From Flaccisagitta enflata (taxonomy: Eukaryota), in assembly GCA_965153355.1 (NCBI GenBank), contig OZ231126.1, forward strand, positions 28,458,001 to 28,522,000: DNA of 64,000 nt. Direction: 5' to 3'. Both the position numbers and the translations under genes were made by a program. Shown here piece by piece: positions 41,771 to 64,000 of this stretch. The notes below the pieces were generated by a model. That model saw only the letters and a program-made list of their open reading frames with translations. It did not search any database and was not told the DNA's origin. The first letter of the stretch is position 1, and every line of letters begins with the position of its first letter.

Positions 41771-42590
41771 ACAAACCAGTGGCTGTCGCCAAAACATGTG
41801 AATTGCTAGTTCTATGTAACAAATTGTAAAAAAATAATAGTGATAACTAGTCATCCAAGGATCGCACATGGTCAGCGGTACCCGATGCCCTGCATGGATT
41901 GATTAGCTGCAGAAGTGGAGTGAGAGCAGGGCAGCGGCCCCAAAGGGCCGATGTCCTGTAGGACACAGGGGTGAATTTCCAGACGTCCTGAGAAGGCACA
42001 TTTGAGGCGTTTGGGGCTACTTTCCTTGTTAATCAATGAGAACATTGAATTTTTTTCCATTTCATTGTCAATTTTCCATGTTATTCAATCTGAATTTTGC
42101 ATTTATTTCAAAATTTGGTCAATTTTCCATGTTATTCAATAGGGATTTCCCATATCTTTAACTTCTAGTAAATTTTCTATGTTATTTAATGGAAATTGCA
42201 TATTTTTTTTCATTTCTTTATCAATTTTTTATGTTATTGAATGGGAATTTTGCATTTCTTCAATTTTCCATATTGTTCAATGGGAACATGAGGCTCAGAA
42301 GCTTTGGCAGGGGGGGGGACGGACGGACGTACGGACGCACAGTAGGTCCAAAAAATAAAAAGCGCACTAAAATCTTAATTTTCTCACAGGGACCTATTTC
42401 AGACACGGGAAATCCAATGGTGGCGTTTAAATTTTTCTGTCACTTAAGGAAATTGCCTTAAGGGCATCTTGAAAATAGGTAAAAAAATTTTTTTTGAATA
42501 AAATATATTTGTTAAGCCGAAGGGTTGCAATAAGTGATAGCAGGTGTCATTTGACTTCAGGTAAGGGTTTCAAGGACTAAAAAGCGTGTT

Positions 42591-43265
42591 AAAGCCCTTT
42601 TTTTAGCAGTTTTTAGGGTAAAATGCCCATATTTTCAACGACAACGCCCTATTGTTAGGCCAGAATTGAGTGTAACTACTCAGAATGCACCCCCCTGTAA
42701 ATTTTCAGATTGGCCCTACTCTTTTTCAAGCCTTAATGGTGTTTTAAAGCCATTTTTATGCAGTTTTTAGGGTCAAATGCCCATTTTTTTTATGGCAACA
42801 CCCTATTGCAAGGCCAGAATCTTATGTATCTATTCAGAATGCACCTCCTTGTAAATTTTCAGGTTGGCTCTACTCTTTTTCAAGCCTTAATCGTGTTTTA
42901 AAGCCATTTTTTAGCAGTTTTTAGAGTCAAATGACCATTTTTTCAATGGCAAGGGCCTATTGTGAGGCCAGAATTGTATGTATCTAGTCAGAATGCACCT
43001 CCCTGTGAATTTTCAGATTGGCCTGACTCTTTTTCAAGCCTTAATGGGGCTTTAAAGCCTTTTTTTTTAGCAGTTTTTAGGGTCAAATGCTCATTTCTTC
43101 AACGGTAACACCCTACAGTGTGGCCCGAAATTAGCGTATCAATCAAAAATGTACTTCCCTTTGAATTTTCAGATTGACCGTTCTCCTTTTCAAGCCTCAA
43201 TGGGGTTTTAAAGCCTTTTTTTAGCAGTTTTTAGGGTCAAATGCTCATTTTCGACGGCAACACCC
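42591..43265. repeat. Tandem repeat of about 155 bp (4+ units) in the left arm of the Transib-like element
   Basis: AAAGCC...GCAGTTTTTAG anchors at 42591, 42746, 42901, 43054 and 43210. Confidence 0.85.
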
Positions 43266-43614
43266 AAAATTCATCATGATATAAATTTTCAGATTGTTCT
43301 AATAATCTCGCTTTAATTAAGGAAGCTGTATAGCATATGATGCTCGGTTTTACCTATTGAGAAAATAGTTGGTTACATGCGCATGAACTCACACACACGC
43401 AAAACTACGTGTACACACACATACACAAACGCATAGACATAGAAATTAGTAAAGAGAACAAACAAACGAACACACGCACGCAGTCAGGCAGATATACAGA
43501 CACGGAATATTTAGCTTAGTGACTCTATAAGAGGCTGTGTACGTAGGTAGGATTTCTATGCATTCGGTTTTTGTTTATTACGACAAAGTAAAAATATGAA
43601 AATCCTTTAGTGAA

Positions 43615-43739
43615 TTGTCGTTGTTGTTATTGTTGTTGATGCTTTCATTATTGTAGCTGTTGTTGTAGTTCTCATTGCCCTTGTTGCTTTTGTTGTTGCT
43701 GCCTTTTTTTTGTTGTTGTAGTCATTGTAGTCGTTGTGG

Positions 43740-43791
<52 letters not shown>

Positions 43792-43853
43792 AGTTGTTGT
43801 AGTTGTTGTAGTTGTTGTAGTTGTTGTTGTAGTTGTTGTTGTAGTTGTTGTAG

Positions 43854-43903
<50 letters not shown>

Positions 43904-43965
43904 GGTGGTGGTGGTGTTGTTGGTGGTGGTGTTGTTGGTGGTGTTGATGATGATGTGATTGTTGT
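43615..43965. repeat. (GTT/GTA/GGT)n trinucleotide array
   Basis: Direct inspection. Confidence 0.9.
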
Positions 43966-44387
43966 TGTGTTTTCTTCCCTGCATCAACAGCGATCAAAAT
44001 CTCTTTGGCAAGCACAGTTGAAACGTTGCATGATGAACACTGCCATAGTTCCACTACATGTAGTGCACAAATCAGCACTAAAACGATTTTCTGAATGGCG
44101 TAACTATGGTAACGTGACAACAAACATAAGCATCGAATGACTTGAGTCAAGAAAAGAAGTATAGGTCTCCATTCATTATCCCGCCAAAAGTCAGATAGGA
44201 TTTTTTTATTTTTTATTTTTTTCAAAATGCGTGTAATCGCGAGTGGAAATGATTGTACTAGGCAACCCCCACTGATGTCCTGAGTTGTATAATCAATCGA
44301 CATTTTTTATCAAATTTTATCATTTCCGTTGAGAGCGCTAAAAACATTAAAAAGCGAAATCTGGTACTTTTTTGTGGGACTGGGTAG

Positions 44388-45558
44388 TAGGATGGGCTCA
44401 ATATGGGCATCAGAAAATCAAATTATTTCCAAGCACTTTTCATATTCCAATTGCAAAATTAGAGCCCAATCTACTCGCAAAATCGATTTGAACTTGATCT
44501 AGGCACTCCGTCATTGAAAAATGCAATTTTGAAGAGAAAGAAAAAAATATCTTAATTTGATGAAATATTCTAATCTTCATAAAATCATAACTCCTCGTCT
44601 ACTTGGCCGAAAACTTTGGGATTGGGCTCATTCAACAACTATTTTTCAGTTCTAGCTATGCAAAAAATTTCAGCTCAATAAGTCAAGCTGTTTATGAGAA
44701 GATTGAAATTCTGTTTCAAAAAAGGACATATGATTTTTCATTTTTTTTCTGACTCGGTCTTTAAGTTTAACAACTCTTTCAATGCGCGTGTACACGGGAT
44801 ATGACTCTTCTGGCCAAGATAGATCTGATATATGATGCATCAGGGTCCAAAAGCCGCGTGGCGAGCCGTAGTGACCAGTAAAGGACCGCATCATATTAGC
44901 AAGCAAGTCAAAATTGTCACTTTGTAAACTAATTGAAATTCGCTTCTCTTCCAAGTGGAAATTTTTTTTTGGGATTTGTCTCATTTGAGAGTATTTTTCA
45001 TTTGGCCTATTTGTACAATATTTCAGCTCATTTGGTATGTAATTCACGTGCTTCAGACCAACCAACTGGAAAACAGATGCTCAAAAAGATACGTATTCAA
45101 CTGAGAATAGTCTCGAACTTCAAATTTTTTTTTTTTTTTTTCGTTTAGTGGTATTACATAAACATGAATCATTTCAATTCATCTAAATCTGAAACTTTTA
45201 GAACAAGGCCCGATACACGGCCAATAAGCAGTCGCTGGCGGGTAGGCTGGGGCAGTATATAGATGGGCAGTGGCAGCGGTACGGGTTGACAGGGGCTGTG
45301 TTTTGGTTGGGTAGGGGCTAATTATGCTCTGAAATCACTAATTCGGCCAATTTTGCGTCATCCAAAATTTTTCGTTACGGACAGACCATCAGACCTTCAG
45401 ACCCTCTTGACGAGTTGCTTATCCAGCAACTAAAAACAGCCTTTTCATTTTCGTGATGCTTATCTTCACTATCCATTCTTCTAATACCGTTACTACTGTT
45501 ACTACTGCTGCCGCTGCCGCCGCCGCTGCCGCCGCCGCCGCAGCCGCCGCCGCTGCCG

Positions 45559-45594
<36 letters not shown>

Positions 45595-45657
45595 TTGCCA
45601 TTGCTGATGTCGTTGTTGGTGTTGTTGTGGATGTCATTGATGTTGATGTTGTTGTCT

Positions 45658-45719
<62 letters not shown>

Positions 45720-46697
45720 ACAGATGCTGCTGTCTATGTTGCTGCACAGGTAATTGTTGATGTGTCGAAGAGGATCACTAATTGGATCCACTGGGTTTGT
45801 TTTCTTTGTTTTGGTCTTATTTGTCCTGAATCTGCCGCTGCACTGTGTTCTCCTCATAGTCGATATTCGCGCTACCGCTATTGCTCTTTCGTCCTTTTTT
45901 TCACTTACACTCACACAGTGTGAACACATTCAGAAATTTTAACTGTCCGAGGGAGTGAGCGAAGTGAGTAAGCGAATAGAGTGAACGAGCCCGTGAAGCA
46001 AAGCGCTGCAGAGCAAGTGAGCAGAATGAGTGGTGCAAGTGTACAAACATAGCGAGCGACCACGCGGCCCCTTTAAAATGCGATTGTCAAAAATTGTATT
46101 AAATCATTTTATCCTTCAAAACCGAATCTGGAATGGCCGGAAATTGCAGACTCTAGACAATCGACTTTCTTGAACTGCGAACTGGCGACGAAAGGATCTG
46201 TAACTTCTTCCCTAAAACCGATGCAAATAAACCTGGTCTTGTTGTGACGCCAACGTAAGCAACGACCATAGATGCAAAATGCAGACAACTCGGTGGTGGG
46301 TAGAGTTTGGAGTTTCAAACAAAATCATCTAGTGGCATATAACGGAAGTATAAGTGAGATTGTATGCATAGTAGGTTGCGTATAAGTGGAGTTTTTAGCC
46401 TAAAAAACGCTTTTTAACGTTTTTTAAGTAGTATTACAATTTCTACTATTTTCTAAAGACGAAATGAGTTTCCCAGTGCCTGTGATGCATCGTTGACTCT
46501 TTTGGAAAATACTTGAGCAAAGCATGGTGGTGTTTTTTCATTCAAATGAGGGACAGAAACAGAGAGACAGACAGACCCAGACCAAGATCGAGACTTGAGC
46601 AGAATAAAGGACAATTCATGAAAATACGATGGGCCATTTGATTTTTTCTTGCCACTCAGTCTCATCTATGGGTCCTTTGATATTCTTTCTTTGTTGT

Positions 46698-46771
<74 letters not shown>

Positions 46772-46876
46772 ATCGATTTGGTTGTCACTACGTACATCTA
46801 ACCAGAGGATCGATTTAACCAAAACATATGGTCCACAAAAATTGAAAATGGCATTACGGCAGGTGCAAAGAGAGAG

Positions 46877-46939
<63 letters not shown>

Positions 46940-47744
46940 CACGAACAGGTATAGACAAGAAGAACTTGATTCTGGACTCATTTCAGTGTTTCTTTTGGGA
47001 TTTAAAAAAAAAAAAATTCTTTTGGGATGATACAATCTTGATATAAGCATGAGGGAGAATCATCGATCATTTATTTTGCTTTATTTTCTGTTTTATCAAA
47101 ACAAATCAAATGATGAAATATATATAACAATGAAATATAAAAAATGAAATAATTGCAAATAATTTTATTGACAAAATATGAGTAAAACATAATAAATATG
47201 AATAAAAAAAATTAAAATAGTGATAACAGAATTATTAAAAGTATAGTAACTTGAAAAGAAAAATATAATAAAGAGTCATGAATAAAATATAAAAATGAAA
47301 AAATGAGAAATGATAAATAAAAAAAAATGAAAAGTGAAAAATGAAAATTAAAAAAAAAAAGTGAAAAAAAGCAAAGTAAAAAGTGAAAAGTGAAATGAAG
47401 AAATAAAAAATAAAAACAATTTTTTGATACTAGTAAAAAAGTTCTGAAAATTTTTATTAAATTTTAAAAATGATCACAGAAAATCCACCATGAATTCTCT
47501 AAATCTTACTACTCCTTCATTGCCAAGTGAAAAACCTGAAAAACCTGAAAAACTCATACCGGAAACTCATTTTGGCGCCAAATACGTTTTTGCGTCTTAA
47601 CTGCCACTTCCGGTAGAGGTGGCGTATAAAAAAGCGTATAGGTAAACTCTAGTGGTGGGCCTTTTTTCAATGTAGGCAAACACGCCATTGTAAAGCCCGG
47701 TATTGGTGGGGCTGCTATCACCCCCAACGTGGTAGCAGAAATGA

Positions 47745-47838
<94 letters not shown>

Positions 47839-48625
47839 TCAATTAATCATGTAATCTACAAAGCAAAGCATTCGGGATCGAGGTAACTGTGATCAAGATA
47901 CTTTTCATCCTATTTATCCTTTGACTGAAAATATCTTGATTTGGCGCATTTTTTATAGTTGTACGTCCAACAAATCTGGGTCTGGATATGTGACCGATCG
48001 GGATACATATCACAAGACAAGTGCAGTGAAACAGAAAGCCATGTGTACAGGGGCACTGATGCAAAAATCAACTGAAAACGCAGAATAAACTCTCCCAATT
48101 GATATGTCAGCCAGTTGATTGATAAACAGACAAACTGACCACCCATTGGTGAGACAAACCAACCATCCGTTGGTTATAGTGTCTAACCCAGGCACTGTTT
48201 ATGCTAATCGAAAGAGTTCTTGTGATATATGCTGTAATCATATGATATGTGCAACAATATGTAGCACTATAAAATTTTGTATTTTTTGCTATCATCATTT
48301 TTAAAATCCATTTTCGCAAAAATCGCTTGGCCTATTGAGCTGGAAATTCTTACTAATAAAACTCTAAAAAGATGCTGTCAAATGAGACCAATCCCAACGT
48401 TTTTGACCAATTAGAAGAGGAATTATGATTTTCTAAAGATATTAATATTTCACTCAAAAGGACATTGTTTTCTTTTCTCCTCAAAATCACATCTTTCAAT
48501 GACGGAGTGCCAAGATCAAGTCCAAATTAATTTTGCAAGTAGACTAAGCTCTAATTATACAATTGGAACATGAAAAGTGCTTGGAAATAATGTTTCATTT
48601 GAATGCCCATATTGAGCCCTCTCTA
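44388..48625. mobile_element. 4.2-kb non-autonomous hAT-like element, 8-bp TSD CTGGGTAG
   Basis: TSD at 44380-44387 and 48626-48633. Ends TAGGATGGGCTCAATATGGGCAT / ATGCCCATATTGAGCCCTCTCTA, with imperfect inverted arms of about 300 bp. Confidence 0.8.
46305..46502 (+). repeat. Dispersed repeat of about 200 bp, also at 63799-63996
   Basis: GTTTGGAGTTTCAAACAAAATCATCTAGTGGC...GATGCATCGTTGACTCTT is nearly identical at both sites. Confidence 0.85.
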
Positions 48626-48762
48626 CTGGGTAGCTACTCAAGCTTGGGGCCTTCTCAGATGATAAACCAAGTCATTACCTTTCGTTTGGTACCATGCATG
48701 AAACTTTTCTTGGAACTGTGTTGCAACTGTCATGAAAACAAAATCCTTCATTGGGTGAATAA

Positions 48763-49732
48763 CCTTGGCATCATAAAAAATGGCGGATTTTTAAAACCTA
48801 TTTTAACCAACTTAATTTGAAAGAAACTAAGGAAAATCGGTGATGGTTGGAAAGATCTTCAAAAGATCTTTCATTTGGGTTGTGTCCCGACATTGTCGCT
48901 CAAACGGTTTAGAAGCTACAGTAATTTGAAAATCACTATACTTTTTCCACCCTTACGGTGTATCATAAAAAGCAGTTTGCTAATAATTTCATTGCTACTA
49001 AAATGATAGAAGACTTTGTCCGATTGCCTTGAAATTTTAGAGGATGTCTAACTTGTGTGTCTTTTGGTACCGGTTCAAATTTTGTGAAGATCGGAAATTG
49101 TTTTTTATGGTTTTTGCATGATCCTTTATTATGTCTGTCAAAATTCCTGAAAAATGATGCAATTTTTTTAAAAAACTTACATTTATTTCTGAATGGTTTG
49201 AGCTGATACTCAGATTACTTCTTTGAAAGAGGGCCGAAAATATAGATCATTGAAAGGGCTCAAAGAGAGTCTTAGATTTTTCTTTTTTCAACCATATCTT
49301 CAAAAACAAAACACTTTATGAATCCTTTTCACTAATTCCTTCAAACCACAGTTTTGCAAACCAACATTAGATTCTTTTGCATGGTGAAAATGATAGTAAA
49401 AGTTGTCCGATTTAGATGAAATTTTAGGGGCTGTTAGAGGAAAGTATGTTGTACCTCCATGTCAATTTTTGTCTCAATCGTATAAAATTTAGTATGGTTT
49501 TTAAGAGATTATTTTCATGTTATGATCGCTTACACACCGTAAGGGCAAAAAAAGTGTAGTGTTTTTCAAATTACTGTAGCTTCTAAACCATTTGAGCTAC
49601 AATGTCGCGACACGACTCAAATGAAAGATCTTTCGAAGATCTTTCTAACCATCACCGATTTTCCTTAGTTTCTTTCAAAGTAAGTTGGTCAAAAAAGGTT
49701 TTAAAAATCCGCCATTTTTTATGATGCCAAGT
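48763..49732. mobile_element. Long-TIR MITE, piggyBac-like
   Basis: CCTTGGCATCATAAAAAATGGCGGATTTT / AAAATCCGCCATTTTTTATGATGCCAAG with inverted arms of about 200 bp. Flanks are ATAA / TTAA (degenerate TTAA TSD). Confidence 0.7.
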
Positions 49733-49975
49733 TTAAAGCGAATACTTAGAATCATTTTCTGATTGAACGGGGACGAGTTCAAGTATGAAATTGGTACAGA
49801 ATGGCATATCATGGCGGATTTAGTCATATCATGCCATAAAATAAATTCCAAAAATTCCCCACCACAGAATTCAGAAATATTAGAAAGGAACGACTGTGGG
49901 ACGGATGGACGGACGTCTGGAAATTCACCCCTGTGTCCTACAGGACATCGGCCCTTTGGGGCCGCTGCCTAAAAA

Positions 49976-63793: not shown

Positions 63794-64000
63794 AGGAGGT
63801 TTGGAGTTTCAAACAAAATCATCTAGTGGCATATAACGGAAGTATAATTGAGAATATATGCATAGTAGGTTGCGTATAAGTGGAGTTTTTGGCCTAAAAA
63901 ACGCTTTTTAACGTTTTTTTTAGTAGTATTACAATTACTACTACTTTTTAAGAAGAAATGAGTTTCCCAGTGCCTGTGATGCATCGTTGACTCTTTAGTA

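Follow-up and report, generated by a model that had tools for sequence, protein, structure and literature searches.

The insertion in the window

We analysed a 64,000-bp stretch of the Flaccisagitta enflata genome (C1:28458001-28522000, called the window below) that contains a 7,561-bp insertion, probably a non-autonomous transposon of the Transib superfamily. The assembly comprises 794 Mb in nine contigs, numbered here C1 to C9. A first-pass annotation, made from the sequence of the window, had described the insertion as a derivative of a Transib or RAG-like transposon, and its account of the structure was borne out at positions 42338 to 49898 (Table 1). The two ends agreed at 10 of 12 positions (CACAGTAGGTCC on the left versus CACAGTCGTTCC, the reverse complement, on the right), and GGACG was present on each side as a target-site duplication (TSD). 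The surrounding host repeat, termed a HINE in the first-pass annotation and present in dispersed copies, is recognised by a 59-bp inverted repeat whose arms are 100 % identical and stand 7.9 kb apart.

As had been reported, the window copy contains no transposase. Subtraction of two nested elements left approximately 2.34 kb, which codes for nothing and consists of a left arm with an array of 154-bp repeats, a GTT run and a right arm. Nested element A, which itself contains other repeats, is hAT-like in its ends and TSD, by the rule for that family. Nested element B is similar to miniature inverted-repeat transposable elements; its superfamily is not settled. Empty sites for both nested elements were found in all four sister copies checked, and the two closest sister copies (2.0 and 2.2 kb) were approximately 96-97 % identical to the window copy in four segments. 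A gene-less element of about 2.3 kb with two terminal arms probably inserted into the GGAC microsatellite of the host repeat, and two unrelated later insertions enlarged it.

Paired ends and target-site duplications across the genome

When the genome was searched with both window ends, the termini paired repeatedly and were flanked by 5-bp TSDs. In the DNA searches, the best 40 of 81 candidates were scored for the left end and the best 40 of 49 for the right end. The sequence CACAGTGGTTCC formed the left end at 29 of 30 loci, the window copy being the sole exception. An exact left-end 16-mer gave 60 matches and a looser 24-mer 84, each with no match in the control; a bipartite right-end pattern matched exactly at 55 places and with one mismatch at 34 (control: 34). 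For pairing, we used 73 left ends (the 84 matches minus nine symmetric-type right ends and two weak ones) and 70 right ends (the nine symmetric-type ends, 53 of the 55 exact matches and eight of the 34 one-mismatch matches picked by resemblance). A right-end partner was present within 30 kb for 63 of the 73 left ends, at a median distance of 3.9 kb (range 2.0-17.6 kb). The family termini begin with CAC; past 11-12 bp the ends are asymmetric in most subfamilies, and one subfamily is near-symmetric over approximately 25 bp.

The interior was read for 36 left ends, and a right end was recognisable in 32 of these. The TSDs of the 32 two-ended copies were perfect 5-bp repeats in 26 cases, had one extra base in two and were unmatched in four. 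The remaining four left ends comprised one with a perfect TSD on inspection, one with a clipped right end and two with no right end within 10 kb. Together with that of the window, 27 TSDs had a GC content of 67 % and a G at position 5 in 21 cases, while the GC fraction of the window is 0.28-0.52 per kb. Insertion occurs through 5-bp staggered cuts at biased sites. The first-pass annotation had allowed that the GGACG match, lying in a GGAC repeat, was due to chance; this caution proved unnecessary, because the TSD is perfect and 5 bp long in 26 of the 32 other copies, and its sequence varies widely among them.

Several family copies (flanks L023, L025, L026, L029 and L174; window positions 42318-42337) sit in a GGAC/GACC microsatellite or in an arm of a host repeat of the same kind. 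Such insertions fit the GC-rich target bias of the family.

The proposed resemblance to recombination signal sequences (RSS) stood in part. The family form of the left end, CACAGTGGTTCC, is a perfect RSS heptamer, and the window form CACAGTAGGTCC departs from it by two private changes. The nonamer-like ATAAAAAGC at spacer 10 is present in the window at 7/9, but it is not kept at 7/9 in the common subfamily and was rejected as weak: it does not exceed the background, a match of at least 7/9 within spacers 0-32 having occurred at 9.5 % of 5,000 random window positions. With the same background, the left end has AA at positions 34-35 and ACTAAAATC at spacer 21, and right ends reach at most 6/9 to the nonamer. 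The 7/9 block at spacer 21 is tentatively regarded as closer to the Transib position than the nonamer at spacer 10. No 12/23 RSS pair was found: at spacer 12 or 23, none of the family ends tested exceeded 5/9 to the nonamer.

Coding remnants were sought in 37 family copies with 24 proteins from transposase loci as queries, and no remnant of a transposase or of a RAG2-like protein (RAG2L) was found. All matches with E <0.5 stem from the third open reading frames (ORFs) of the RAG-like loci described below, and those with E <0.1 all lie in repeat-derived tails of these ORFs. Four further Transib ORFs gave a best E of only 0.43 against the family copies.

A candidate master copy on contig C9

The longest of the 63 paired copies (C9:3732222-3749815; 17,594 bp) has the two family ends, is flanked by a CGTCG TSD and contains two matches to Transib transposases. 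Its left end (3749815; flank CGACG) was 80 % identical to the window over approximately 930 bp, the 154-bp repeats included. A right end preceded by the same TSD was predicted first and then found exactly at C9:3732217, one of three matches in the genome; with one mismatch allowed, the predicted word gave 34 matches versus 26 for the control. This right end is also an exact match to the bipartite pattern. The transposase matches lie 2.6-2.8 and 5.3-5.6 kb inward of the left end. They were found by two classical Transib queries (E 3.7e-8, 3e-4 and 1.6e-7), and the place was not recovered by RAG1 or RAG2L queries. Of the two Transib queries, one is itself a match to HzTransib (6PQN; E 7.8e-50). 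Among the 84 pattern-matched family ends, C9:3749815 alone had one of the 80 transposase places inward of it at a distance of up to 200 kb. The chance of a transposase place near a family end was 0.025 for 3 kb and 0.085 for 10 kb.

The protein search with Transib, RAG1 and RAG2L sequences, which the first-pass annotation had proposed, found many Transib-like places and three RAG2L-RAG1L loci. The expectation that an autonomous partner exists in this genome is therefore upheld for a Transib-type candidate, the 17.6-kb family copy with transposase matches, and considered improbable for a RAG-like partner of this family. We consider the partner to be Transib rather than RAG-like because the Transib matches are held by a copy of the family itself. 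The genome-wide paired ends and the GC-rich 5-bp TSDs support the assignment to the Transib/RAG superfamily as a non-autonomous derivative. We conclude that the window element is, with good probability, a non-autonomous cut-and-paste transposon of the Transib superfamily with a probable master copy on C9.

The element was most likely mobilised in trans, the transposase being a single-subunit Transib enzyme that its own family encodes. For this enzyme, the C9 copy contains the best candidate gene: the two matches there would represent exons of the family's own gene, apparently intron-split and running away from the right end and towards the left one. Cleavage may follow the nick-hairpin route of RAG and Transib. 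This excision mechanism is established for HzTransib and ProtoRAG, according to the available text of a preprint (bioRxiv 2023.08.20.553239).

Several observations weigh against the C9 copy as master. The C9 sequence read amounts to 1,030 bp at the left end and a 35-nt word at the right end, and a nested Transib of another family is possible within the 17.6 kb. The two matches are short (~83 and ~88 aa, 32-35 % identity) and one of them spans a TAG, which may point to a dead gene or to an alignment running across a splice site. Similar two-piece Transib matches occur at four further places without a listed family end. In a DNA search with the type-d right end, the C9 right end was absent among the best 40 of 70 candidates. 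A further long family copy (15.3 kb) lies at C2:23350975-23366230.

Alternative origins

The family may be of Transib type with a master that is lost or belongs to another Transib family, the C9 exons being a nested passenger. We regard this as unlikely, though it is the best of the alternatives. The C9 copy far exceeds the 3-4 kb given for autonomous Transib elements in the accessible part of PMC1131882, nested insertions are common in the window family, and other Transib families are present, one of them with CACAATGGCTCC, which matches the family left end at 10 of 12 positions. Against this stands the finding that the only transposase near any family end lies inside a TSD-flanked family copy, that on C9. 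Moreover, no other transposase locus read has the family's terminal regions: flanks were read at approximately 45 loci (L082-L126, L145-L173) as possible masters, and none bore family ends. Profile hits of the family termini at other transposase loci were microsatellite or repeat positions, the one exception, weak at E 0.0015, being an unrelated tandem array.

It is far less probable that the window element was derived from, or cross-mobilised by, the RAG2L-RAG1L transposons of this genome. The window family and these RAG-like (RAGL) elements have a CAC[AT]GTG start and 5-bp TSDs in common, the RAGL elements appear to have been mobile recently, and one of 55 end comparisons (family left end versus the 3' end of the C8 RAGL) reached z 4.2. 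However, only 5-9 of the first 12 bases and 4-13 of the bases at positions 13-40 match between family and RAGL ends. The two RAGL TSDs are AT-rich (TCTTT and TTTTG) versus 67 % GC in the window family, and the RAGL elements have their own set of derivatives. Because the ends diverge past the first 6-9 of 12 bases and no RAG1L or RAG2L remnant was detected in 37 family copies, RAG2L-RAG1L elements are not taken as the source of the window copy. Judged by sequence, the two are separate families.

Another CAC-ended superfamily such as Chapaev/CMC, whose members also have CAC ends but TSDs of 3-4 bp, or a coincidence of chance ends and a chance TSD, could be invoked from the position of the window TSD in a GGAC repeat, but this reading is already largely refuted by the left-end controls (0 matches), the pairing and the TSD counts (26 of 32 exactly 5 bp, in many different sequences), and retains a negligible probability.

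Tandem RAG2L-RAG1L transposons

RAG1 queries led to three loci, on C3, C4 and C8, and two RAG2L queries led to the same three and to no others. At all three, a RAG2L ORF with Kelch and PHD-like regions lies upstream of the RAG1-like (RAG1L) ORF on the same strand, less than 200 bp away, and the genes are not convergent. A generic finder of CAC ends and TSDs gives chance pairs in stretches of 30-50 kb; RAGL ends were therefore accepted only with in-register homology between C4 and C8. The DNA homology of these two copies starts and stops in register with CAC[AT]GT ends. No terminal inverted repeats (TIRs) or TSD were found at the C3 locus. A 7/9 nonamer at spacer 23 of the C4 3' end is absent from C8 and is not claimed as a signal. 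That this genome contains tandem, TIR-flanked RAGL elements is concluded with high confidence.

Each C4 end has at least 40 genomic matches. At six further places, sequences with 97 % (5') and 99-100 % (3') identity to the C4 ends are paired by position at 2.2-13.4 kb. Recent movement of the RAGL family is indicated by these seven loci with 97-100 % identical ends. The ratio of non-synonymous to synonymous substitution rates between C4 and C8 was 0.10-0.24 for all three ORFs, and assembly frameshifts affect the upstream ORF of C4, where the shift falls within an A-run, and the RAG1L of C8.

The best PDB match of RAG1L was ProtoRAG (6B40_A; E 1e-28), and the named neighbours looked up were RAG1-like proteins of Amphiura, Diadema and Branchiostoma. 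The proteins of C3, C4 and C8 form one clade with a relative, P0001, which is all that the tree supports (a quick, midpoint-rooted tree with long branches, built without a HzTransib or algal row); identity to any full-length RAG1L outside this clade was at most ~28 %. RAG1L has a RING/Zn finger and a DEDE tetrad, with D600, E662, D708 and E962 conserved in C3, C4 and P0001 (43 % identity). The equivalent of R848 is K in C3, C4 and C8, R in P0001 and M in four other RAG1-like rows (three of them named), the assignment of this column being uncertain because a two-residue indel adjoins it. The C730 equivalent is not Cys. None of the four proteins has a CCGHC tail; their stop follows just past the core, and a spliced tail exon is possible. 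The motif GRPK is found in C4, with GKMK in C3 and GRKK in P0001.

The RAG2L profile matched 6B40_M best (E 4.2e-11), with RAG2 clusters of the ESM Atlas ranked second and third (0.92); the PHD-like region was judged from its Cys/His pattern only. No acidic hinge was evident in the comparison with ProtoRAG and RAGL-A to RAGL-D. A third ORF upstream of RAG2L begins like a signal peptide and includes a single hydrophobic stretch, of a hydropathy of no more than 1.7-1.8; it gave no usable match in Pfam (C3 copy), PDB or ESM Atlas. At all three loci this ORF stops at the same phase-0 AAG|GT donor, and a phase-0 CAG| acceptor stands where the RAG2L frame begins; from this, splicing into a membrane-anchored RAG2L is predicted. 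The chances are about even that RAG2L is spliced to an N-terminal signal peptide, ectodomain and membrane segment that would tether it to the membrane. Approximately 6 % (1.8 Gb) of a poly(A) RNA run was compared with the C4 genes: the ORFs received no read, and the 101 partial reads that aligned belonged to two dispersed repeats.

We advance the combined picture only as a tentative one, which may well fail in one of its parts: a new tandem RAGL lineage, recently mobile, with a RAG1L that became vertebrate-like independently (basic residue at 848, no CCGHC, GRPK in C4) and a membrane-tethered RAG2L.

Other features and loci

The palindrome in the window element, which resembles the X-box consensus, is possibly a relic of a promoter. 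A 199-bp repeat (94 % identity) occurs in the window at 46305-46502, within nested element A, and at 63799-63996.

Three arrangements of family copies deserve mention. At C1:33976119-33989914 (L078 and L079), two copies lie inverted 5.9 kb apart; both are among the four with unmatched TSDs, and CTCAG stands next to the left end of one copy and next to the right end of its partner, which suggests aberrant transposition or an inversion. The right flank is the same in copies L067 and L072, which lie on different contigs, and the TSDs of one of them do not match; this suggests that recombination or segmental copying took place. Two facing left ends 660 bp apart at C6:18259203-18259862 are possibly a symmetric miniature element.

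The Transib-like places include about a dozen open frames of 717-791 aa and several split ones; those at L106-L125, again about a dozen, measure 743-791 aa. Several of the L106-L125 frames are preceded by an X-box-like word, comparable to the one found close to the right end of the window family; the ends of these Transib-like elements lie outside the 4-kb loci. Three complete Transib elements of other families have their own CAC ends (Table 1). At L156-L166, many matches are broken into several pieces, which is consistent with intron-containing families; no ends were found in 10 kb. A 584-bp element at L156:3618-4201 has symmetric CACAGTGGGCC ends similar to RAGL termini.

Two RAG1-like fragments, C6:12746544-12747683 (L061) and C4:79499998-79500459 (L062), have a Cys/His tail motif (CCGHC in L061); no ends or RAG2L were found in 30 kb, and L061 is closer to ProtoRAG than to HzTransib. 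The RAG1-like protein P0023 (782 aa) has a C-terminus that resembles a JAMM/MPN domain by its motif.

Table 1. Features of the window element and of related transposons elsewhere in the assembly (positions without a contig or locus name refer to the window)
Feature	Position	Strand	Length	TSD	Remarks
Host repeat arm	41930..41988	+			Perfect 59-bp inverted repeat, outside the transposon
TSD, left copy	42333..42337	+		GGACG	Direct reading, family-wide test
Left terminus	42338..42375	+			CACAGTAGGTCC (family CACAGTGGTTCC), A-rich block, ACTAAAATC at spacer 21 (7/9 to RSS nonamer, tentative)
Subterminal tandem array	42568..43265	+			~4.5 units of 154 bp, common to family copies and candidate master
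(GTT)n microsatellite	43610..43960	+			Within the element
X-box-like palindrome	44100..44113	.			~580 bp from the right end in 16/36 other copies
Nested element A (hAT-like)	44388-48625 (with flanks 44380..48633)	.		CTGGGTAG (8 bp)	TAG ends, ~320-bp inverted arms
Nested element B (MITE-like)	48762-49733 (with flanks 48760..49735)	.		TA (or TAA)	202-bp inverted arms at 92 %
Right terminus	49864..49898	-			CACAGTCGTTC, 17-nt spacer, second conserved block AWTCWRT
TSD, right copy	49899..49903	+		GGACG	
Host repeat, opposite arm	49911..49969	-			59-bp inverted repeat, outside the transposon
RAGL copy (L150-L152)	C4:29916443-29930648		14,206 bp	TCTTT	CAC[AT]GT ends
RAGL copy (L153-L155)	C8:38372833-38385758		12,926 bp	TTTTG	CAC[AT]GT ends
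RAGL locus (L126)	C3:97706324-97712132				All three frames open
C4-RAGL derivative	C8:55716488-55720878				
C4-RAGL derivative	C3:25691158-25694853				
C4-RAGL derivative	C1:58640940-58643164				
C4-RAGL derivative	C6:8577495-8582651				
C4-RAGL derivative	C1:59660441-59673870				
C4-RAGL derivative	C4:63830493-63833652				
Complete Transib, other family	L170:654-5260		4,607 bp	CATCG	Own CAC ends
Complete Transib, other family	L168:2349-5886			GGCTG	Own CAC ends
Complete Transib, other family	L169:1843-7269			CCACA	Own CAC ends

Comparison with known systems

Taken alone, the window element is of limited importance: its family adds to the non-autonomous Transib families already described, although it is well resolved and both a candidate master and a target preference can be named for it. 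The family agrees with the description of Transib in the available text of Kapitonov and Jurka (2005; PMC1131882), and like the non-autonomous TransibN1-N3_AG described there it has CAC ends, 5-bp TSDs, a GC-rich, sequence-biased target, AA at left-end positions 34-35 and many gene-less copies per coding copy. Unlike these elements, as far as that text describes them, its ends are mostly asymmetric past 11-12 bp, its right end is without a nonamer and it carries a 154-bp subterminal array. The candidate master, at 17.6 kb and apparently intron-split, also differs from the autonomous Transib elements of the same text in its size. The Transib ORFs of this genome are homologous to HzTransib, with a match at E 6.8e-11 in addition to that of the query that found C9.

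The tandem RAGL elements are the most interesting result and are relevant to the evolution of the V(D)J recombinase from a transposase. R848 almost abolishes transposition, and invertebrate RAG1L proteins are hydrophobic at this position (M848) and virtually all keep the CCGHC tail, according to the accessible part of the preprint (bioRxiv 2023.08.20.553239). Here, a lineage with K or R in the 848 column and no CCGHC tail nevertheless has TIRs, TSDs and near-identical derivatives. The sufficiency of those changes to stop transposition is therefore directly testable.

Like ProtoRAG and RAGL-A to RAGL-D, as described in the sources available to us, the tandem RAGL elements have a RING finger, a DEDE tetrad, Kelch and PHD-like regions, TIRs and a 5-bp TSD. 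Unlike RAGL-A to RAGL-D in those sources, the genes are in tandem (RAG2L, then RAG1L) instead of convergent, the CCGHC tail is missing, K or R replaces M at the 848 equivalent, the C730 equivalent is not Cys, and an upstream ORF with signal-peptide-like and membrane-like stretches is present. No report of this RAGL family, or of a tandem layout in an animal, was found in the literature searched, which left subscription journals mostly outside its scope; we think it likely that tandem RAGL in an animal has so far gone unreported in any paper.

In protostomes and cnidarians, RAG1L-RAG2L pairs are invariably convergent, according to the available text of PMC7204232. In the alga Aureococcus anophagefferens, the genes of AanRAGL have the same direction, unlike those of other RAGL transposons (PMC9435367). 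Tandem order in an animal is relevant to the question of which layout came first, the algal or the convergent one. Like AanRAGL (PMC9435367), the elements described here have RAG2L less than 200 bp upstream of a RAG1L gene of equal orientation, together with asymmetric TIRs and a 5-bp TSD. They differ from AanRAGL, an algal element whose TIRs start with CACACCC, in being 13-14 kb long and lying on chromosome-scale contigs among host repeats.

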